Shown: positions 1,307-15,366 of the stretch, one piece after another | How the letters are laid out: each line of letters opens with the position of its first letter | Numbering within the stretch: the stretch's first letter is position 1 | DNA from: a virus | Lineage: Duplodnaviria > Heunggongvirae > Uroviricota > Caudoviricetes | Strand: one strand, 5' to 3' | DNA length: 41,766 bases | IMG/VR virus record: IMGVR_UViG_2531839131_000018 | Made by a program: the position numbers and the translations under genes | Notes under the pieces: generated by a model | The model's database searches: none | What the model saw: only the letters and a program-made list of their open reading frames with translations | Told to the model about the DNA's origin: nothing

Positions 1307-3673
1307 TTAAAAATCAACCGGATTCGGGATCAGTTTTTGCCAGATTGCTGAAACGTATTTTGCCTGGTGACGGGCATCATCCAGCGCATTGTGGCGCACG
1401 CCTTCAAATGGAATAACGATTCTGGCATCAAAGTCGATTGTTTTTCCCAGCTCAACGATTGTGCGTACATCGCGATCGTTGTAGTAACGCCACGGGCAGG
1501 GGATCCCCTGCCGTTCGTATGAACGGCGCAAAATCGTGTTGTCGAAGTTGGCTCCATTTCCCCAAACCTGAACAAAAAATTCACCGGAGTTTGCGTCGAT
1601 AAATTCCCGCAATTGTAACAGTGCATCATCTAACGGGATTTCATCGGTCATAATGGCAGATTGCGCTTCGCGTGATTGCTTAAGCCACCATTTAATGGTG
1701 TCCCGATCAATGACTCCGCCAGCAGTTTCCAGATCGATAGTCTTACTAAATTCCGGTCCCATATCTCCGGTTTGCGGATCGAAGAATATTGCACCTATTG
1801 AGATAATCGGGGCATCAGGATTGTTTCCCATGGTTTCAAGGTCGATCATTAGATGGTCACATGTCCTGCTGGTGGATGCGTCTATATGATGACCGTTCAT
1901 ATTAATTAAGGGATCTGTCACCTCGCCAGTTTCACTATCGCTGGCATGATGCTGATTGCCGCCAGGGTTCTCCTTGTGTGGATGTTCAGCACCTTCCATT
2001 TCCTCCGGATCATTTTCCTGAACTTCAACCTGATTCTCTTCATTGAATGTTTCCTGGTATGTTGCGTCGCCCATCGCCGCGCCACAATCAGGGCAGTTGC
2101 CCCCACCGCTCTGACCGCAGGTGGTGCAGACTTTTTCCGTTTCTTTCTGGTTCTGGTTCACAGAGTCGAGGGTTTCAATCCCCTTAACCCATTTTGGATC
2201 GTTCGGGTCGCTAATCCCTTCAACAAATTCTCCGCGAGAGGCAGCCAGTAATTTGTCTGCATCGACATGATTTTTGGGCGGAATGTTTTTCCGGGCTTCA
2301 TGGAGTTCTGCCCGCAGTTTCTGATATTTCGCATCAACAGAATTTACCTGTGACTGAGCATCCAGCGGCTGCGTGTTCTGATGATGTTCAGTTGCATTCG
2401 GTTCCACTGTTTCAGCCGTTGCCTGTTCATCTGCCATTGCGCCAGATGGTTGTGGTTTTTCTTCATCGTCCTGTTTTCCTTCTTCTGTTACTCGCTGCGG
2501 CATCGGGGCAGAGGAGCGACCGCAGGCAATATCCACGATTTCCGGATCAGGGTTGGCATGATCGGTTTCAGTCAGTACTTTGTTCAGATATTCAGTGACG
2601 TGTGCGGGGATGACCTCGATCCCAATTGGTGCTTCTTTCACGGACGCAACCACGATGGCGCGGGAATAATCCAGCCCGCCAGGCATAGTGATGAATTTGT
2701 CGCGGAAAACAGAAAAGGGTGGTTTATTTTCAGCGATAATTTCCTCAATGCGTTTAGCATGTGCCGGATGAAGGTTATAGATGTCCACGTCCATTGAACG
2801 GGCCAGTACGCCAGTGGCTACATCGCGCGCCAGTGACGTCAGATCGTGGACGAAACCTTCGCCGCGATCGGTGAGGTTCCCGCCGCCAGCATTAGCACCG
2901 GAAGCCGTGCGAGTGATGCGTGAAACACGATTCCCTTTTCGCCATTCTTTTGTCAGAAGACCGCGATCAATGTGTTCGGTATCCAGCCAGGCTGAAATGA
3001 AATTCTTAAATTCATTGGGCTGATGTTTTTTCGTGATAGAGAACACTGCCTTAATTGCATCAGTCAGGCGGAGCAGGGCGGCATTATCCAGAGTTGTCGG
3101 TTCTGCCATGCTGCGTATGGCCAACAGCAGATTCTGGACATAGCTGTTTTCCTGATCCATCTCAAGAGCAGTAATGTGTTTGCGTTGTTCACGGGTGGCA
3201 TGATGCAGGTATTTCCGATCCCCGGCTGCATACGTAAAAATGTGCAGAAGACGCTGTGTGAACCGCAAAGTGGCTACAGAGACTTCGCAATCCTGGCAAT
3301 CCTCATGGGCGTCTGCCTGCGCGTTTTCTTCCTGGCCTCCCGCCAGTTCTTTGGTTTCTTGAGCATTATCCTGGTGGTGAATGTCGTCTGGCGCTGCTCC
3401 CGGTTTTAGTTCCCAGGTCATGGAGTCTTTGCTGAGTTGATAGCGTTCACTCCAGGTAAAATCGATCTCACCTTCAGGGGGAAGGTCATTAACGACAGGA
3501 AAATTTGTGGCAACAGCTTTAAAATAGTTGCTCAGTTTTTTACCTGACTTAACGATCAGGTAGTCCAGAGTGGCACGGGTCGATTCAAAATCATCACTTG
3601 CCCACAGGATGACGTCAGGTTCACCGGATGATTTTTTCGCTTTCCGTAAAAGGAAGAGTGGTTTTGTGCTCAT
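1307..3673 (-). CDS. Large early protein with C-terminal DnaQ-like DEDDh 3'-5' exonuclease domain (788 aa); N-terminal region resembles the non-catalytic part of RecE (from memory)
   Basis: C-terminal motifs IDLETMG (Exo I), [13 protein letters not shown] (Exo II), [13 protein letters not shown] (Exo III, DEDDh); CTTCGQ..CPDCG zinc-ribbon-like motif; acidic low-complexity linkers. N-terminus [21 protein letters not shown] recalled as RecE-like, unverified. Confidence 0.8.
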
Positions 3674-4132: not shown

Positions 4133-4324
4133 TTAAAGCCCTGCCGGGACTTCGTTATTATCCATGCGAATAACTTTATCGACCGGATAACAGTTACCGG
4201 GAATTTTCTGTTCCGCTGCGGCAGCCATGCATTCTTTCATTGAGCCGTATACGCCAGTAACCATGTCAACCGGTTCACCGGAAACAAGAAAAACCGTCAG
4301 AACAAGTGCAAATGTGGTATTCAT
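4133..4324 (-). CDS. Small secreted or membrane-anchored protein with N-terminal signal-like segment (63 aa)
   Basis: MNTTFALVLTVFLVSG hydrophobic N-terminus; its ATG overlaps the stop of the upstream gene (ATGA), indicating translational coupling. Confidence 0.5.
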   Translation of the reverse strand: MNTTFALVLTVFLVSGEPVDMVTGVYGSMKECMAAAAEQKIPGNCYPVDKVIRMDNNEVPAGL

Positions 4325-4509
4325 TGCCAGCATCCTTTTTGCATCAGGCGTAAACGGGCCAGCATTGAAACAATGCATATTTGATTTAATAGCTCCCGTT
4401 CGTGTTTTCTCTTATTAATGGCATCTTCAGTAAATACGGGGTTACTGATTTTGACACCAATTTCAAAACAACCTTCAGACGTATTGACGTTTGGTAATAA
4501 CGTTTCCAT
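4321..4509 (-). CDS. Hypothetical small early protein (62 aa), possibly Kil-like
   Basis: METLLPNVNTSEGC...; GAGGA Shine-Dalgarno 7 nt upstream of ATG; stop overlaps start of downstream gene. Confidence 0.5.
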   Translation of the reverse strand: METLLPNVNTSEGCFEIGVKISNPVFTEDAINKRKHERELLNQICIVSMLARLRLMQKGCWQ

Positions 4510-5091
4510 TATCGCGTCCTCAACAATGAATTTTGTGATGCGGTGCCTGGTGCCTCCAGGTGACGTTAACCAGTTAACAATTAACGCCGGATACAGAGAA
4601 CCCACCCATAAGAACCAATACGGAGGTCAACTAGCCTTTTTAACTGTTCCGCGTGCGCTTAGCCGCATTCACCGCATCACAAAATTCACTTTAAAAAGGG
4701 CGGCAGAGCAGTCACGGAGTAAAACTGATACCGCCAAACGTCACCAGAAAATTGATAACAGAGGGCGTTGCAGCGGAGTTGTCACTTAAGTGTATGGTCA
4801 ACCTGACAACCCGGTGCTTCATCGGGAAGACATGAACCCCCCGCCATACTTACCGCCGCGCCATTTCGCGGAGTGCCACAACCGGAAGCGCACGGTCGAC
4901 GAAAATTTAACGACAGGCTATCTATGAACCAGCTACCTCGCCGTGCGCTTTCGCGTTATGGTCTGACTTTTCAGGGAAATATCCTTTCAGTAAACTGTCA
5001 GTTCCGGATGCTCACCCGTGTCCGGCGCACGCACTCCACCTCACCCGTGGAGAACTCCTTAATTACCAACCTTAGCTTCGTTGGTTAGCTA

Positions 5092-5310
5092 TTAACGCGG
5101 GTATGTAATCATTCTGGCAATGCTTAATGCCGCTGCTTTTTCCAGCCTGGTGATATCCTGCTCCAGAGCGGACAGATTTTCAGCCTGCTTAGCCCTGGCT
5201 TCATTGGCCCATTTCAGATCCTGCGCTGCATTAATTTTCTGGCGCATCCACTCATAAAGTTCATCATCGGTATAGTCTGGCGCGATGATGACGGGTTCTC
5301 GTTTCTGCAT
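5092..5310 (-). CDS. Hypothetical small early protein (72 aa)
   Basis: MQKREPVIIAPDYTDDELYEWMRQ...; AAGGAG Shine-Dalgarno immediately upstream of the ATG. The same frame stays open upstream to 5907 but the internal start is better supported. Confidence 0.55.
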   Translation of the reverse strand: MQKREPVIIAPDYTDDELYEWMRQKINAAQDLKWANEARAKQAENLSALEQDITRLEKAAALSIARMITYPR

Positions 5311-5436
5311 GTCGACTCCTTGTGGTTCGTGTTGCCTGCTTTTAACCACATCAGGCGAGGTGGTATCCTGAAAGCCGACCAAAGCTTTACGGATAAATAA
5401 GTTATGTTGCAACCACCAATAAATCCGCTTAAAAAT

Positions 5437-5724
5437 ATGAAAATTGATTACTGGTATAAAGCACTTACAGTTGTTGGTGCTGCGTTGTTTGTCTTTAATG
5501 GAACATCTTTTTTTGACAGATACCCCGTTGTTCCACTGGCTTTTTTGTCCTCCGGTATTTTCTTCACTGGCCTTGGAGAGTGGATCAATCACCCTCTCAG
5601 AGTGAGATTTATTGGTCCCGGAGCCGTTGCCCGGGGGCATAACCGTTCTCCGTGCACACTCGGCATTATCTTCGATATATTGGGTGTCTGCCTGATTGTT
5701 ACAGGAGTCGTCAAATTCTTCTGA
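5437..5724 (+). CDS. Possible small membrane protein (about 95 aa), opposite strand to surrounding early genes; SieB-like superinfection-exclusion role is speculative
   Basis: Two hydrophobic helix-like segments (ALTVVGAALFVF, SSGIFFTGLGEW). No good Shine-Dalgarno; conflicts with an antisense ORF on the minus strand, so very uncertain. Confidence 0.25.
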   Translation: MKIDYWYKALTVVGAALFVFNGTSFFDRYPVVPLAFLSSGIFFTGLGEWINHPLRVRFIGPGAVARGHNRSPCTLGIIFDILGVCLIVTGVVKFF

Positions 5725-6005
5725 AGAGAATCCACACACAGGGCATACAACCGGAATACGGCAAATGATTTCACCCGGCTCGATGTGTGGGTACTCGCCA
5801 TCAATTTTTTGTTGCTCCCGTATGCCCATGTTGACCTCATTTCCCCTTAACGCCGGGGTAGCGGAACAAAAACCTGCTGCATAGTTAAAGTTGAACCCTG
5901 CCGTCATGTTCTTACGCCTCGGGCTGGCTACTTAACCCCTGACCACTGCCTGGTAACTCGAAGTATTGCCCGGCGTTCTGTGGGGCGGGGTGGGTTGGTG
6001 AACAC

Positions 6006-6035
6006 ATCATAAAACACACAAAATGTGTTAGTCAA
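6006..6035 (-). promoter_or_regulatory. Candidate leftward early promoter (PL-like) overlapping palindromic operator-like sites
   Basis: On the minus strand TTGACT (reverse complement of 6030-6035), 18-nt spacer, TATGAT (reverse complement of 6006-6011); palindromes AACACAT..ATGTGTT (6001-6029) and ACAC-A7-GTGT (6035-6049) overlap it. Confidence 0.4.
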
Positions 6036-6057
6036 CACAAAAAAAGTGTATAAAGGG

Positions 6058-6089
6058 ATAAAAAACTCCCATTCAAGAGGCGATGGGAG
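6058..6089 (-). terminator. Rho-independent terminator after the ParE-like gene
   Basis: Hairpin CTCCCAT-N10-ATGGGAG (6066-6089) followed on the minus strand by a U-run (A-run 6060-6065 on plus). Confidence 0.5.
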
Positions 6090-6097
6090 GTGGTTAG

Positions 6098-6388
6098 TTA
6101 TTCGCTGTTACTGGGATATTGTTGGCGAGCATGTGCCACGCTTACAATTTCAATGCTTGAGGCAGCTACTTTGTACAGTATTATGTAGTTAGGGTGAGCC
6201 ACTATCTCTCTCAATCCAGAAACCCGTTCGCTTGGCGGATATAGGTACGGATGCTCAGATAGGGGTAGTACAGATGTTTCAATGCGTATTTTTAGTCTGC
6301 GCGCTGCCGGAGGGTTCTCCTTGGCGATGTAAGTTATGATCTGACGCAAATCATCGCGAGCAGACGGTAACCATAATATGGGCAGCAT
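6098..6388 (-). CDS. parE: ParE/RelE-superfamily type II toxin (96 aa)
   Basis: MLPILWLPSARDDLRQIITYIAKENPPAARRLKIRIETSVLPLSEHPYLY..GLREIVAHPNYIILYKV..IEIVSVAHARQ matches the ParE pattern; start overlaps antitoxin stop by 1 nt. Confidence 0.8.
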   Translation of the reverse strand: MLPILWLPSARDDLRQIITYIAKENPPAARRLKIRIETSVLPLSEHPYLYPPSERVSGLREIVAHPNYIILYKVAASSIEIVSVAHARQQYPSNSE

Positions 6389-6579
6389 TACACGCTCTCG
6401 CTTTCCGTGGCAATTTGATTGATGATTTTTTCCATTTTTGCCATTACTTCGTCGTGCGGAATTGCCGGGCGTGGATCTGCCAAACTTGCTGCAACCTTGG
6501 CGCGCAACCATTCGTTATAGCTGTTTTCTTGCTCGATAGTTTCAAATTCTGAGACTATTGGCGAAAGAACCGTGTTCAT
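6388..6579 (-). CDS. Small antitoxin (63 aa), PaaA2-like by size and position
   Basis: 63-aa acidic ORF directly upstream of and overlapping the ParE-like gene; GAGAGG Shine-Dalgarno 6 nt upstream. Resemblance to PaaA2 of the PaaR2-PaaA2-ParE2 module is from memory. Confidence 0.7.
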   Translation of the reverse strand: MNTVLSPIVSEFETIEQENSYNEWLRAKVAASLADPRPAIPHDEVMAKMEKIINQIATESESV

Positions 6580-6605
6580 AATATACCTCTCCCGTATGGT
6601 TGTGA

Positions 6606-7004
6606 TTATGCTCGACGTCCTTTTTGAGCGGCGAGCCATCTTGCAACGGTGCGATCCATTGATTCTTTTTTGTCTTTCATGTCCTTAAGCATTTGTTCTT
6701 GCTCTTCTTCTGGGAACGCCCCAAATGTTTGAAGTAAATCTCTTTGGCGCGGACCTATTTTCATTGAGTCAGGCACTACAACCTGTTCATCCTCGCTCGG
6801 AGGAAGCATGAACCAAAAAATAGGTCGTGCGGTTATTTGTGAAAGTCGATCTAAATTGTCAGGATTTGGACTAACCAAGCCCGCAGCCCATCGCTGCACT
6901 GTTTGTTGCGACACCCCAACTAATTTCCCAAGCTCCGCTTGACTCCAGCCTGTTTCAGACAAGAGTTTCTTTATTCTATATGCAGTGATCTCGAGTGTTT
7001 TCAT
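6606..7004 (-). CDS. HTH (XRE/Cro-CI family) repressor, RacR/PaaR2-like; likely prophage immunity repressor (132 aa)
   Basis: HTH motif SQAELGKLVGVSQQTVQRWAAG; divergent from a Cro-like gene; operator-like palindromes in the 7005-7110 intergenic region; co-oriented with the downstream toxin pair. Confidence 0.75.
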   Translation of the reverse strand: MKTLEITAYRIKKLLSETGWSQAELGKLVGVSQQTVQRWAAGLVSPNPDNLDRLSQITARPIFWFMLPPSEDEQVVVPDSMKIGPRQRDLLQTFGAFPEEEQEQMLKDMKDKKESMDRTVARWLAAQKGRRA

Positions 7005-7040
7005 ACCAACAATTCTACTCAAAAAATGAGTAATACGCGA

Positions 7041-7080
7041 CACACAAAAAACGAGTTTACACATACACGTTTTTTGTGTA
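7041..7080. promoter_or_regulatory. Operator-like inverted repeat in the divergent repressor/cro intergenic region
   Basis: ACACAAAAAACG (7042-7053) and CGTTTTTTGTGT (7068-7079) are near-perfect reverse complements; candidate -35 TTTACA at 7056-7061 lies between them. Confidence 0.45.
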
Positions 7081-7110
7081 ACCTCCTTTCGCATAATGGA
7101 GGTACAAATA

Positions 7111-7383
7111 ATGAATGAACATATTAAGAAAAAGGTTGCGGAAAAATTCTCCCAGCGAGAACTGGCTATGCTGATGAGCACGAAACAACAAAGTGTATCT
7201 CGTTGGTTCAACTCTAAGTTCCCTGCATCAAGGGTGATTCATTTGTGTCAATTGATGCAGTGGGAGGTTGTTCCCCATGAGCTCCGACCAGACATATACC
7301 CTAACCCAACCGACGGTTTACCTGTTGGATTCAAGGTTAACACATCAAATGCACCGGAGTTGATTCATGAAAATCAAGCATGA
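7111..7383 (+). CDS. Cro-like / YdaS-like HTH protein (90 aa)
   Basis: GGAGGT Shine-Dalgarno 6 nt upstream; HTH-like segment SQRELAMLMSTKQQSVSRWF; divergent from the repressor. Confidence 0.65.
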   Translation: MNEHIKKKVAEKFSQRELAMLMSTKQQSVSRWFNSKFPASRVIHLCQLMQWEVVPHELRPDIYPNPTDGLPVGFKVNTSNAPELIHENQA

Positions 7384-7792
7384 ACACATCCGCATGGCGA
7401 TGAATGCCTGGGCGCATCCGGACGGCGAGAAAGTACCGGCTGCAGAGATTGCCAAAGCGTATTTTGAGCTGGGAATGACGTTTCCTGAACTGTACGGCTA
7501 CAGCCATCCGGAAGCCCTGGCTCGCAATACTCAGAAAATATTCCGCTGGGTGGAGAAAGACACCCCTGATGCTGTTGAAAAAATTCAGGCGTTGTTACCA
7601 GCGATCGAAAAAGCAATGCCACCTCTGCTGGTGGCCAGAATGCGCAGCCACAGTTCAGCTTATTTTCGGGAGCTGGTGGAGACGCGGGAGCGACTGGTGA
7701 GAGACGCTGATGATTTTGTCGCAGTGGCGATCGCTGGTTTCAACCAGATGAATCGTGGTGGTCCGGCAGGTAATGCAGTGGCTGTACATTAA
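7367..7792 (+). CDS. YdaT-like protein (141 aa; CII-like or toxin-like family, function uncertain)
   Basis: Position directly after the cro-like gene with overlapping start; length and composition fit YdaT-like proteins of Rac-type prophages (from memory). Confidence 0.55.
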   Translation: MKIKHEHIRMAMNAWAHPDGEKVPAAEIAKAYFELGMTFPELYGYSHPEALARNTQKIFRWVEKDTPDAVEKIQALLPAIEKAMPPLLVARMRSHSSAYFRELVETRERLVRDADDFVAVAIAGFNQMNRGGPAGNAVAVH

Positions 7793-11632: not shown

Positions 11633-11843
11633 AAACGGTTTGCAGTGAAAGGGGAGTTAAGTAGAATTGCTGCGGGTGCTTGAGGCTATCTGTCTCAGGC
11701 ATGAACACCAAAAGGCAGATAGAGAAAAGCCCCAGTTAACATTACGCGTCCTGCAAGACGCTTAACATTAATCTGAGGCCCAATCTATGTCTCACAAATG
11801 TAGGTTAGCCTCTTACGTGCCGAAAGGCAAGGAGAAGCAGGCT

Positions 11844-11999
11844 ATGAAGCAGCAAAAGGCGATGTTAATCGCCCTTATCGTCATCTGTTTAACCGTCATA
11901 GTGACGGCACTGGTAACGAGGAAAGACCTCTGCGAGGTACGAATCCGAACCGGCCAGACGGAGGTCGCTGTCTTCACAGCTTACGAACCTGAGGAGTAA
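11844..11999 (+). CDS. hok: Hok/Gef-family type I toxin (51 aa), closest to HokD/RelF from memory
   Basis: MKQQKAMLIALIVICLTVIVTALVTRKDLCEVRIRTGQTEVAVFTAYEPEE shows the Hok signature (transmembrane segment, conserved Cys, C-terminal EVAVF..YE); an in-frame upstream ATG at 11787 gives a mok-like extension. Confidence 0.85.
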   Translation: MKQQKAMLIALIVICLTVIVTALVTRKDLCEVRIRTGQTEVAVFTAYEPEE

Positions 12000-14173: not shown

Positions 14174-14548
14174 ATGCGTATAGAGTTTGTTTTGCCTTAC
14201 CCGCCAATGGTGAACACCTACTGGCGACGTCGTGGCAGCACATATTTTGTATCAAAAGCCGGTGAGCGTTATCGCCGGGATGTGGCGCTTATTGTTCGCC
14301 AGCAGCGACTGAAATTAAATCTGTCCGGAAGGCTGGCGATAAAGATTATTGCAGAGCCACCGGATAAGCGCCGTCGTGACCTGGACAATATTCTGAAAGC
14401 ACCACTTGATGCACTGACACACGCGGGGTTGCTTATCGACGACGAGCAGTTTGATGAAATTAATATTGTGCGCGGTCAGGTCGTTCCTGGTGGTCGGCTG
14501 GGCGTGAAGATTTACGAAATAATGCATGACGGGCAGGTCAAAAAATGA
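14174..14548 (+). CDS. rusA: Holliday junction resolvase RusA (124 aa)
   Basis: Matches RusA layout and motifs (PPMVNTYWRRRG..., RRRDLDNILKAPLDALTHAGLLIDDEQ); typical nin-region position. Confidence 0.85.
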   Translation: MRIEFVLPYPPMVNTYWRRRGSTYFVSKAGERYRRDVALIVRQQRLKLNLSGRLAIKIIAEPPDKRRRDLDNILKAPLDALTHAGLLIDDEQFDEINIVRGQVVPGGRLGVKIYEIMHDGQVKK

Positions 14549-15366
14549 AGCTGGAAGATTTACCGAAATACTATTCCCCAAAATCGCCTGGCCTGACTGA
14601 TGCATCCGCCTCGACGTCAAAAGATGCGCTTAGTATCACTGATGTGATGGCTGCGCAGGGCATGACACAGAATCGGGCTGAGATGGGGTTTTCTGCGTTC
14701 CTGGGGAAAATGGGCATCAGTATGAATGACAGGGCGCGGGCAACAGAATTACTGGCAGATTATGCACTCAGTCGGTGCGATCGTGTGGCGGCGTTGAGAA
14801 AACTTCCGGCAGAAATAAAACCGGTAGTGATGCGCATTATGGCTTCGTATGCTTTTGAGGATTATGCCCGCAGTGCAGCGAGTAAAAAGCAGTGTTCTTG
14901 TTGCCGTGGGGAAAAATTTATTGAAAGCGAAGTTTTTACAAACAAGGTTCAGTATCCGGATGGTAAGCCGCCAGTATGGGCAAAGTGCACAAAAGGCGTG
15001 TATCCGTCTTATTGGGAAGAATGGAAAAAAATCCGGGAGGTGGTGAAAGTTTCCTGTCCTGAATGTAAAGGGAAGGGAGAGATCTCCACTGCCTGTAAAG
15101 ACTGCCGTGGGCGTGGTGTTGCCATTCATCGTGAAGAGTCAGAAAAACGGGGTATGCCTGTTATCAGGGACTGCCGGCGTTGTGGCGGTCGTGGCTATGA
15201 AAGACTGCCATCAACGGAGGCATTTAATGCCATATGCAAAGTGACGAGTGCTATCACACTTGATACATGGAAAAAATCAGTGAAACGCTTTTACGATACG
15301 TTGGTGGTTCGGTTTGACATTGAAGAGGCATGGGCGGAGCGGCAGTTAAAGAGGGTAACGCGATAG
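14545..15366 (+). CDS. Late-gene antiterminator Q-like protein (273 aa)
   Basis: ATGA overlap with rusA stop; Cys-rich zinc-finger-like cluster (CPECKGKG..CKDCRGRG..CRRCGGRG); immediately upstream of a promoter plus short terminator. Confidence 0.7.
   Translation: MKLEDLPKYYSPKSPGLTDASASTSKDALSITDVMAAQGMTQNRAEMGFSAFLGKMGISMNDRARATELLADYALSRCDRVAALRKLPAEIKPVVMRIMASYAFEDYARSAASKKQCSCCRGEKFIESEVFTNKVQYPDGKPPVWAKCTKGVYPSYWEEWKKIREVVKVSCPECKGKGEISTACKDCRGRGVAIHREESEKRGMPVIRDCRRCGGRGYERLPSTEAFNAICKVTSAITLDTWKKSVKRFYDTLVVRFDIEEAWAERQLKRVTR

Follow-up and report, generated by a model that had tools for sequence, protein, structure and literature searches.

What is a toxin-antitoxin pair doing directly behind the repressor of a prophage? 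The window analysed here, a stretch of viral DNA of 41,766 nucleotides, carries on its minus strand a three-gene unit composed of an HTH repressor (6606-7004), an antitoxin (6388-6579) and a toxin (6098-6388), a layout that the original prediction had likened to the PaaR2-PaaA2-ParE2 system. Our analysis identifies the unit as a prophage repressor, a small antitoxin and a ParE toxin, encoded where a lambda-like E. coli prophage controls the choice between lysis and lysogeny; the unit probably serves to make that control region hard to lose. Systems of this kind are already well described, and the original prediction both spotted and read the locus correctly. As a discovery the locus carries little weight: the system type has been on record since 2010, structures of the toxin-antitoxin pair have been solved, the CI/Cro/CII-like switch was dissected in 2021-2023, and an essentially identical locus, an IMG/VR entry with 99.98% DNA identity, is already public. 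Complete E. coli genomes match at about 92% identity at best.

The toxin, antitoxin and repressor genes

Analysis of the parE-like toxin gene (6098-6388, minus strand) supports the ParE fold originally proposed for its 96-residue product. The protein matches the solved ParE2 structure 5CW7_B from end to end (residues 1-93, E 1.3e-35) and Pfam ParE_toxin with 63.5 bits (cutoff 23), and because it is 66% identical to crystallised ParE2 it would be expected to adopt the ParE/RelE fold. The paaA-like antitoxin gene (6388-6579, minus strand) encodes 63 residues that match the PaaA2 structure 3ZBE (E 1.7e-23) and Pfam PF21217 PaaA2 (79.6 bits; cutoff 27); the Pfam search detected no domain besides PaaA2, and the protein is without a DNA-binding domain. 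The sizes of the two products and the single nucleotide that their genes were said to share were confirmed on the minus strand, the TAA stop of the antitoxin and the ATG of the toxin having one base in common (GTG TAATG CTG). The distance from the repressor stop to the antitoxin ATG, which had been put at 24 nt, measures 26 nt (6580-6605, TCACAACCATACGGGAGAGGTATATT) and includes a GGAGAGG Shine-Dalgarno sequence.

The paaR-like repressor gene, a CI analogue (6606-7004, minus strand), encodes 132 residues with an N-terminal HTH_3 domain (Pfam, E 5.8e-11) and a C-terminal PaaR-type domain. The product is 99% identical to RefSeq WP_047087139.1, and its start (MKTLE) is the one used by RefSeq for the 99%-identical protein of E. 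coli RM9088. As in PaaR-PaaA-ParE systems, the regulator is a separate gene with PaaR homology, on the same strand as the antitoxin and directly upstream of it. The similarity to PaaR2 is confined to the C-terminal half, the N-terminal domains of the two proteins not being homologous. A sequence search for a solved repressor structure returned generic HTH matches only (P22 C2, HipB and 434, none with E better than 1e-3) and thus gave no PaaR structure. Pfam reported HTH families only and no peptidase S24 domain, for which the protein is too short; because this autocleavage domain is absent, RecA-stimulated self-cleavage of the repressor is not expected. The S24 motif is likewise missing from PaaR2 (PMC8630535). 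A reading of the repressor as a DicA orthologue was considered and rejected: the DicA family NCBIfam PRK09706 covers residues 8-128 of 132 with 58.2 bits (E 7e-16), below the curated cutoff of 101, identity to K-12 DicA is 27%, and the two proteins are alike in architecture only.

The proposed likeness to PaaR2-PaaA2-ParE2 held up in structure, Pfam and alignment comparisons. The repressor, antitoxin and toxin are homologous to PaaR2, PaaA2 and ParE2 (33, 68 and 66% identity, respectively), but each stands nearer to its counterpart in the Sakai Sp4 copy (ECs_1069, ECs_1068 and ECs_1067; 61, 75 and 90.5%).

Operators, promoters and the terminator

The repressor had been described as diverging from a cro-like gene across a palindrome-rich stretch, and a search with the operator motif ACACNAAAAANGTGT (at most two mismatches) bears this out. 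Five copies occur in the 41.8 kb, all at 6014-6049 or 7017-7079, with 1.16 copies expected by chance and none of 100 shuffles reaching five. Three of these predicted operators (7017-7031, 7042-7056 and 7065-7079) lie in the OR analogue (7012-7084). The other two (6014-6028 and 6035-6049) belong to the OL/PL analogue (6006-6049, minus strand) and overlap a leftward promoter, TTGACT-18-TATGAT (6035 to 6006), which scored 10/12 matches in the promoter scan and whose position corresponds to PL933P/OL of CP-933P (PMC8630535). To the left of PL the window carries the ydfC-dicF-dicB division-inhibitor operon, with DicF at 4698-4749 and DicB at 4321-4605; the possibility that a 271-aa ORF (5092-5907) is the first gene behind PL was examined, but the ORF was not accepted as a single gene.

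Within the OR analogue, the candidate -10 hexamer of PRM is TAGAAT (7017 to 7012, minus strand) and the candidate PR consists of TTTACA (7056-7061), a 17-nt spacer and TAACCT (7079-7084). Both hexamer pairs fall below the threshold of the consensus promoter scan; we infer their placement from position and from analogy with PRM933P and PR933P (PMC8630535). The repressor ATG follows the candidate PRM hexamer after 7 nt and lacks a Shine-Dalgarno sequence. The window and CP-933P have in common such a -10-like hexamer 6-7 nt from the repressor ATG and no Shine-Dalgarno sequence, which suggests a leaderless transcript, and by this analogy the repressor transcript of the window is probably leaderless.

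On the other side of OR, 106 bp from the repressor start, lies a divergent ydaS-like gene (7111-7383, plus strand), the Cro analogue, whose 90-aa product matches Pfam YdaS_toxin (E 8e-10) and shares 62% identity with Sp4 ECs_1070 and 29% with CP-933P YdaS; GGAGG lies 8 nt upstream of its ATG. It is followed by a ydaT-like gene (7367-7792, plus strand), the CII analogue, with a 141-aa product that matches Pfam YdaT_toxin (E 7e-10) and is 84% identical to Sp12 YdaT and 89% identical to Sp4 YdaT. The junction of these two genes contains a predicted YdaT operator OM, TTGATT-N6-AATCAA (7360-7377), which marks the PRE analogue. This is one exact match and the sole site in the window at up to one mismatch, with 0.21 expected by chance, and its motif and position agree with the footprint in PMC9986795. 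The divergent ydaS-ydaT genes, the OR and OL operators and the YdaT site together give the region the layout of a lambdoid immunity region. While the two products match the Pfam families by sequence, the names YdaS_toxin and YdaT_toxin should not be read as functions, and YdaS and YdaT of CP-933P act as Cro- and CII-like regulators, not as a toxin-antitoxin pair (PMC8630535). The annotation needs correcting on this point: calling PaaA a 'RelB family antitoxin', the Cro analogue a 'YdaS toxin' and the CII analogue a 'YdaT toxin' misleads.

The intrinsic terminator claimed to follow the toxin gene was assigned to 6060-6089 (minus strand) by RNA folding and by comparison of related loci. Folding gives a stem of nine pairs (CUCCCAUCG...CG.AUGGGAG) followed by UUUUUUAU (U6), with an energy of -9.8 kcal/mol (z = -2.1) that 8 of 200 shuffled sequences also reached. 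A consensus terminator scan made no call after parE, missing the hairpin because its loop is long and bulged. Among 80 related loci, the region just 3' of the toxin gene exists as 25 distinct sequences, and every one of the 25 has a G+C-rich hairpin and then a T run in the same place, built from at least four unrelated kinds of stem sequence. The folding and the 25 variants outweigh the negative scan, and the suggestion that a terminator is absent was rejected. No terminator was found between the repressor and the antitoxin.

Proposed regulation and function of the cassette

We hold it to be very probable that a lambda-like prophage has its leftward immunity operon here, with a captured PaaA-ParE cassette that acts as an addiction module. 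The gene identities, layout, operators, terminator and conservation on which this reading draws were computed here, while repression, co-transcription, PaaA lability and addiction come from experimental work on the homologue in CP-933P; we infer the leaderless start, the promoter positions and the same behaviour of the window copy. Under this reading the repressor would bind palindromes of 15-17 bp, three in OR and two in OL. Bound repressor would keep off the rightward promoter, with the cro-like ydaS, the cII-like ydaT and the replication genes, as well as the leftward PL, with the ydfC-dicF-dicB division-inhibitor operon, exo and int, and it would autoregulate its own, probably leaderless, transcript. 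The paaA and parE genes, whose products have no DNA-binding domain and which lack a convincing promoter of their own, would ride both the repressor transcript and the YdaT-activated PRE transcript as far as 6060-6089. ParE would be a nucleoid-targeting, SOS-inducing toxin kept inactive by protease-labile PaaA. Cells in which the immunity segment is lost or replaced would stop making PaaA and be poisoned, and for this reason the cassette would be an addiction module that stabilises both the prophage and its immunity region.

Co-transcription of the three genes and their repression by the regulator are predicted for the window from its anatomy, namely the short junctions, the lack of an internal terminator or usable promoter and the terminator after parE. 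Growth arrest by the toxin, neutralisation by the antitoxin, antitoxin lability and replicon stabilisation are predicted from ParE2 and PaaA2. Work on CP-933P established the operon structure and the footprints of PaaR2 and YdaS on OR, and demonstrated that PaaR2 represses PR and PL and activates PRM at low dose, that paaR2 is leaderless, that PRE is YdaT-activated, that PaaA2 is degraded by ClpAP/ClpXP, that ParE2 induces SOS and that the module stabilises a plasmid by post-segregational killing; the term 'addiction' rests on plasmid-loss assays (PMC8630535). The original prediction had asked what would follow if the repressor served both lysogeny and control of the toxin pair, an 'if' that is not new, as Jurenas et al. 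2021 demonstrated that PaaR2 serves both in CP-933P (PMC8630535). The order of site occupancy and the octamer looping of PaaR2 may not transfer to the window repressor because the DNA-binding domain and the operators differ (33% identity overall).

In all 80 related IMG/VR loci examined, the repressor gene immediately precedes paaA in the same orientation and ydaS is divergent; parE is also present in 79 of them. The repressor N-terminal domain has been swapped repeatedly among related loci, with the C-terminal domain and the toxin-antitoxin genes remaining linked, a pattern that would fit a toxin-antitoxin pair policing recombination in the immunity region. Operators vary among the window, Sp4 and Sp12 types, and the repressor HTH and the Cro analogue vary with them. 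A scan of genome contigs did not find the antitoxin in any enterobacterial representative genome.

The alternative that survives best, though we regard it as unlikely, couples prophage induction to toxin release. Induction would turn PRM off, labile PaaA would decay, and free ParE would damage DNA or topoisomerases, with the outcome that SOS and the commitment to lysis are reinforced or that cells aborting induction die. Such coupling would be in keeping with the dependence of the toxin-antitoxin genes on the repressor transcript in an operon with no usable internal promoter, and with the protease lability of PaaA2 and the SOS induction by ParE2. The late gene set also appears full, with Q and lysis genes and with large ORFs in the places expected for terminase, portal and tail genes, so that, unlike in CP-933P, a real induction pathway may exist. 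However, the toxin-antitoxin operon of the CP-933P reporter is transcribed in both switch states, still appreciably so in the ydaST-on ('lytic') state, toxin activity appears in neither, and SOS-positive cells are equally rare in both (0.88 vs 0.95%) (PMC8630535). Coupling of induction and release was therefore looked for on a cryptic-prophage reporter and none was seen, because neither switch state releases ParE2 (PMC8630535), and the YdaT-activated PRE, whose operator is conserved in the window, would supply toxin-antitoxin transcription when PR is on. We give an equally small chance to its counterpart in a full prophage, where the non-cleavable repressor would be inactivated, presumably by an antirepressor, PRM would fall silent, PaaA would decay and freed ParE would cause DNA damage or an SOS signal that feeds forward and makes the lytic decision irreversible, or that kills cured cells.

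Lambda carries rexA-rexB downstream of cI in one operon, and some type II toxin-antitoxin systems give phage defence. The window cassette occupies the rexA-rexB position and also occurs in unrelated bacteria, as a mobile pair that stands alone, and it might by this token serve abortive infection or exclusion of superinfecting phages instead of addiction. We nevertheless consider this very improbable, as post-segregational killing has been demonstrated (PMC8630535) and the literature examined on the PaaR-PaaA-ParE family reports no defence phenotype. Neither toxin nor antitoxin, nor YdaS or YdaT, matches a PADLOC defence model, and the repressor gives generic HTH matches only.

That the pair is a self-expressed or non-functional passenger, adjacent to the repressor without regulatory meaning, is scarcely credible: a weak promoter-like match (6606 to 6578, 9/12), the only one found by the promoter scan inside the operon, and the occurrence of the pair without a PaaR gene outside enterobacteria speak for it, but the match was rejected as a toxin-antitoxin promoter, being unable to express the antitoxin because its -10 ends inside the paaA start codon; the repressor-antitoxin-toxin order stays unchanged across all 80 loci despite the repeated N-terminal domain swaps; a terminator lies behind the toxin gene, with none detected between repressor and antitoxin; and the two ORFs, both intact, share 75-90% identity with the Sp4/CP-933M copy, which we take to be the PaaA1-ParE1 pair and whose antitoxin is described as specific for its own toxin. 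The addiction module is thus the reading we prefer, and since the prophage is apparently complete, the role of its toxin-antitoxin pair during real induction or curing is testable, unlike in cryptic CP-933P.

Comparison with known systems

Stand-alone PaaA-ParE pairs from Bartonella, Sphingomonas/Sphingobium, Rhodobacterales and Burkholderiales have the same overlapping two-gene arrangement as the window (antitoxin 47-80%, toxin 48-74% identical). They lie outside lambdoid immunity regions, usually after a non-coding stretch or an unrelated gene, and no PaaR-like repressor was detected adjoining them save for a weak match in one locus (L023; 26% identity, E 1e-6), located downstream of a toxin fragment at a site where the antitoxin match is truncated. 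In the Qin cryptic prophage of E. coli K-12, DicA resembles the window repressor in being short, lacking a peptidase domain and combining an N-terminal HTH with a C-terminal helical domain, and the 27% identity extends over the full length of the alignment. Qin also has its repressor upstream of a ydfC-dicF-dicB division-inhibitor operon, but no toxin-antitoxin pair lies between dicA and the ydfA promoter, and DicC is 24% identical to the window YdaS-like protein.

The lambda cI-rexA-rexB operon matches the window in design, with a repressor, accessory genes and a terminator on one transcript between OR/PRM and OL/PL, three OR operators, a probable leaderless repressor mRNA, divergent Cro and CII analogues and a PRE-type back-up promoter. 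In contrast, sequence similarity to CI, Rex, Cro or CII is absent, the window repressor is without an S24 domain, and its passengers are a type II toxin-antitoxin pair rather than Rex.

The PaaR2-PaaA2-ParE2 copy of CP-933P/Sakai Sp12, reportedly described by Hallez in 2010 and with structures 3ZBE and 5CW7 said to come from Sterckx in 2014/2016, is the more distant of the two characterised copies. Like the window it has the three components inside a lambdoid immunity region, a ParE fold and a PaaA without a DNA-binding domain; the repressors have a C-terminal domain in common (...LLQxFxAFPEExQxxxxxxxKxKKESMxxxxARWxAAQKxRRA), and the YdaT operator is identical. The C-terminal 18 residues of the antitoxin and the N-terminal domain of the repressor are unrelated, however, and the operators are of the GTTTAGTAA type, unlike those of the window. 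CP-933P is cryptic, whereas the window prophage looks complete.

The closest characterised relative is the Sp4 copy, which shares with the window its gene order, gene sizes (133, 63 and 95 aa in Sp4) and junctions, the ydaS-ydaT flank on one side and the terminator and OL/PL on the other, and the type of antitoxin C-terminal tail. We take Sp4 to be CP-933M, and this copy to be 'system 1' (PaaR1-PaaA1-ParE1, Hallez et al. 2010), partly from the correspondence of Sakai and EDL933 prophages. Sequence comparison places the window module nearer the PaaR1-PaaA1-ParE1 lineage than PaaR2-PaaA2-ParE2. PaaA1 is specific for its own toxin, and because PaaA1 and PaaA2 do not cross-neutralise, the window copy is expected by analogy to be insulated from ParE2 (2016 review). 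Its terminator stem sequence is unrelated to that of Sp4. The two copies also differ in the HTH region of the repressor and in their operators, ACAC-N7-GTGT in the window against the ACAG/ACAAT type in Sp4, and this is a difference in immunity specificity. The window thus holds a heteroimmune allele, in which a new set of operator half-sites, ACAC-N7-GTGT, is paired with a different HTH, and this allele could be of use for comparing the ways in which PaaR-type repressors recognise DNA.

Gene layout and protein identities

The three-gene PaaR-PaaA-ParE module is real and, its closest relative apart, was read correctly in the original prediction; all of the defining features of the family that sequence can reveal were found. 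Its genes all read in one direction on the minus strand, span 6098-7004 and encode a 132-aa repressor (6606-7004), a 63-aa antitoxin (6388-6579) and a 96-aa toxin (6098-6388). The repressor N-terminus (MKTLE) is the RefSeq start of a 99%-identical protein from E. coli RM9088. Between the repressor stop and the antitoxin ATG lies a space of 26 nt, rather than the 24 nt first given, which contains a GGAGAGG Shine-Dalgarno, and the predicted 1-nt overlap of antitoxin stop and toxin start is read at their junction (TAATG). The operon had also been proposed to end in an intrinsic terminator, and the minus strand at 6060-6089 does contain a G+C-rich hairpin of 9 pairs with UUUUUUAU after it. A simple terminator scan missed this hairpin; RNA folding of the minus strand gave -9.8 kcal/mol (z = -2.1), with 8 of 200 shuffles folding as well. 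A hairpin and T run occur at the same position in all 25 distinct downstream-of-toxin sequences from 80 related IMG/VR loci, with at least four unrelated stem sequences among these variants, so that folding and comparison both bear out the proposal and the comparative evidence for the predicted terminator is good.

The ParE fold claimed for the 96-aa protein is supported, as residues 1-93 align with the E. coli O157 ParE2 crystal structure (5CW7_B, E 1.3e-35) and Pfam ParE_toxin matches well over threshold. The antitoxin matches the PaaA2 structure 3ZBE (E 1.7e-23) as well as Pfam PF21217 (PaaA2), and Pfam detected no DNA-binding domain in it. Pfam places an HTH_3 domain at the N-terminus of the repressor and detects no S24 peptidase in it; among solved structures only generic HTH domains match. 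NCBIfam DicA matches the repressor over its full length at 58 bits, below the cutoff of 101, and identity to K-12 DicA is 27%. Pfam assigns the genes divergent from the repressor to the YdaS (7111-7383) and YdaT (7367-7792) families. Toxicity, neutralisation and co-transcription are predicted for the window copy by analogy.

Operators, promoters and regulation

Palindrome-rich regions had been noted on both sides of the module, and it is only there that the ACACNAAAAANGTGT motif (two mismatches or fewer) occurs: the 41.8-kb window holds five copies confined to two clusters, against a chance expectation of 1.16, and 0 of 100 shuffles reached five. Three predicted operators (OR; 7017-7031, 7042-7056 and 7065-7079) lie in the 106-bp repressor/ydaS intergenic region and two (OL; 6014-6028 and 6035-6049) just past the terminator. 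A promoter scan returned a strong leftward match (TTGACT-18-TATGAT, 6035 to 6006) overlapping the OL sites, which corresponds to PL933P/OL of CP-933P (PMC8630535), and a candidate PR (TTTACA-17-TAACCT) spans 7056-7084. A TAGAAT hexamer stands 7 nt before the repressor ATG, with no Shine-Dalgarno upstream of that ATG; likewise, GATAAT lies 6 nt ahead of the paaR2 ATG in CP-933P, and the Sp4 and RM9088 loci carry a -10-like hexamer 6-7 nt ahead of the repressor ATG. Leaderless translation has been shown for paaR2 and lambda cI (Jurenas et al., PMC8630535), and the hexamer position and absent Shine-Dalgarno suggest that the window repressor may be translated in the same manner. The YdaT operator was footprinted as TTGATT-N6-AATCAA at the end of ydaS (Prolic-Kalinsek et al., PMC9986795); an exact copy at 7360-7377, the sole match in the window with 0.21 expected, is the predicted YdaT operator. 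Operators differ between window/RM9088, Sp4 and Sp12, tracking the differences in repressor HTH and YdaS, and the window is, judged from these sequences, a distinct immunity specificity on a common chassis.

Directly left of OL, about 80 bp (5912-5990, plus strand: GGGTGGGTTGGT...CCTGACCACTGCC...GGGCTGGCTACTTAAC) are nearly identical in four heteroimmune prophages (the window and loci L001, L003 and L005) whose adjoining operators differ. A transcript from PL would begin with this stretch as its 5' leader, which might act as a regulatory RNA element, nut-like or otherwise.

The best-supported mechanism is the published CP-933P account, carried over by homology. The repressor would shut PR and PL and autoregulate PRM, YdaS would contend for the repressor's own sites, and PRE, switched on by YdaT, would read back across the operon, with PaaA and ParE expressed from the repressor and PRE transcripts. 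ClpAP and ClpXP would degrade PaaA and, once the locus is lost, freed ParE would associate with the nucleoid and induce SOS. The CP-933P system stabilises an unstable plasmid (PMC8630535). The original prediction further suggested that prophage induction is coupled to toxin release. Coupling has so far been examined on a dual reporter of the cryptic prophage CP-933P, where transcription of the TA operon persisted in either switch state and the share of SOS-positive cells was similarly small (0.88 vs 0.95%; PMC8630535); we therefore consider its probability low. Expression of the TA pair independently of the repressor is unlikely, since the sole internal promoter-like match ends within the antitoxin start codon. 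A Rex-like defence role finds no support, PADLOC giving no matches for PaaA-ParE.

Prophage surroundings

The window is a lambdoid prophage that looks complete from its gene content and ORF positions. It carries an integrase (1-1020), exonuclease VIII (1307-3673), Q (14545-15366), replication genes, RusA, a methyltransferase, a TerB-like gene, and holin and endolysin genes, with large rightward ORFs at the expected terminase, portal, head and tail positions. The PL analogue has DicB (4321-4605, minus strand; Pfam E 4e-38) and the DicF sRNA (4698-4749, minus strand; Rfam 76.7 bits) downstream of it, so the repressor probably also keeps these cell-division inhibitors silent, like DicA in Qin. 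A second and unrelated toxin-antitoxin system, the type I hok/sok locus, is revealed by a sok antisense RNA (11674-11849, plus strand; Rfam RF01794, 120 bits). Two plus-strand tRNA genes, one with anticodon CAT (17042-17117; tRNA-Met per ARAGORN, ileZ in Sakai prophages) and a tRNA-Arg (TCT; 17215-17291), lie between the post-Q methyltransferase ORFs and the lysis genes, the same arrangement as in O157 Sp prophages.

Just left of PL, a 271-aa ORF (5092-5907, minus strand) is probably not a single gene, as only its ends have counterparts in E. coli genomes, in ydfC and in an "ECs_2282 family putative zinc-binding protein" (60% coverage, 97% identity). Translation probably begins inside it, from an ATG at 5829 that AAGGGGAAATGAGG precedes, as in Qin ydfA. 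The unmatched middle overlaps a 106-aa ORF (5404-5724, plus strand) with several hydrophobic segments, seemingly a small membrane protein; Pfam and NCBIfam gave no family for either ORF.

Origin of the cassette and its known relatives

The order YdaT- YdaS- / repressor+ PaaA+ ParE+ is invariant over the 80 related IMG/VR loci (L025-L104), the repressor lying directly upstream of paaA in every one and parE also being seen in 79; across 5.2 kb, one of them shares 99.98% identity with the window. When PaaR2 and an uninspected group of 27 IMG/VR loci with a 166-aa upstream ORF are counted along with the other loci, the N-terminal domain of the repressor can be sorted into four or more classes, perhaps five, that are unrelated or divergent. 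Because paaA, parE and the C-terminal part of the repressor hardly vary while the N-terminal classes change, the comparison implies a putative recurrent recombination junction within the repressor gene. Evi, an isolated temperate phage, carries a PaaR2-type version.

Among species-representative genomes, PaaA-ParE pairs occur in Bartonella, Sphingomonas, Rhodobacterales and Burkholderiales (antitoxin identity 47-80%), and no PaaR gene was found beside these non-Escherichia pairs, the sole weak repressor-like match lying downstream of a toxin fragment (L023). In the alpha- and betaproteobacterial pairs of loci L008-L014 (Bartonella spp.) and L016-L021, antitoxin identity is 64-80%; the toxin is disrupted in several Bartonella species (L011, L013, L014 and L023). 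Similar pairs so far from Escherichia, together with these disruptions, suggest wide horizontal spread followed by decay. In Qin, the ydfA promoter directly follows dicA without a TA pair between them. Capture of a two-gene TA cassette behind a repressor gene is an idea already published (PMC8630535), and the stand-alone pairs and the Qin arrangement support such a capture in a DicA/PaaR-type immunity region.

The window was compared with two Sakai loci, Sp4 (ECs_1067-1071), which we take to be CP-933M, and Sp12 (ECs_2277-2281). Identities to the Sp4 and Sp12 copies are 61% and 33% (PaaR2) for the repressor, 75% and 68% (PaaA2) for the antitoxin, 90.5% and 66% (ParE2) for the toxin, 62% and 29% for YdaS, and 89% and 84% for YdaT. 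These values place the window module, by sequence, in the PaaR1-PaaA1-ParE1 lineage and not the PaaR2 lineage. Likeness between PaaR2 and the window repressor is limited to the C-terminal domain (...ELLQxFxAFPEE.Q......K.KKESM....ARW.AAQK.RRA), and the antitoxin ends in 18 residues that follow the Sp4 type and bear no relation to the PaaA2 tail. In a review citing Hallez 2010, PaaA1 and PaaA2 are described as not neutralising each other's toxins; insulation of the window copy from ParE2 is therefore expected. According to Jurenas et al. (PMC8630535), Sp12 and CP-933P are identical and CP-933M holds a homologous system. The PaaR-PaaA-ParE system is already known, with near-identical copies public. 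The proposed likeness to PaaR2-PaaA2-ParE2 holds in that all three proteins align to the family, while the closest relative is instead the CP-933M/Sp4 paralogue.
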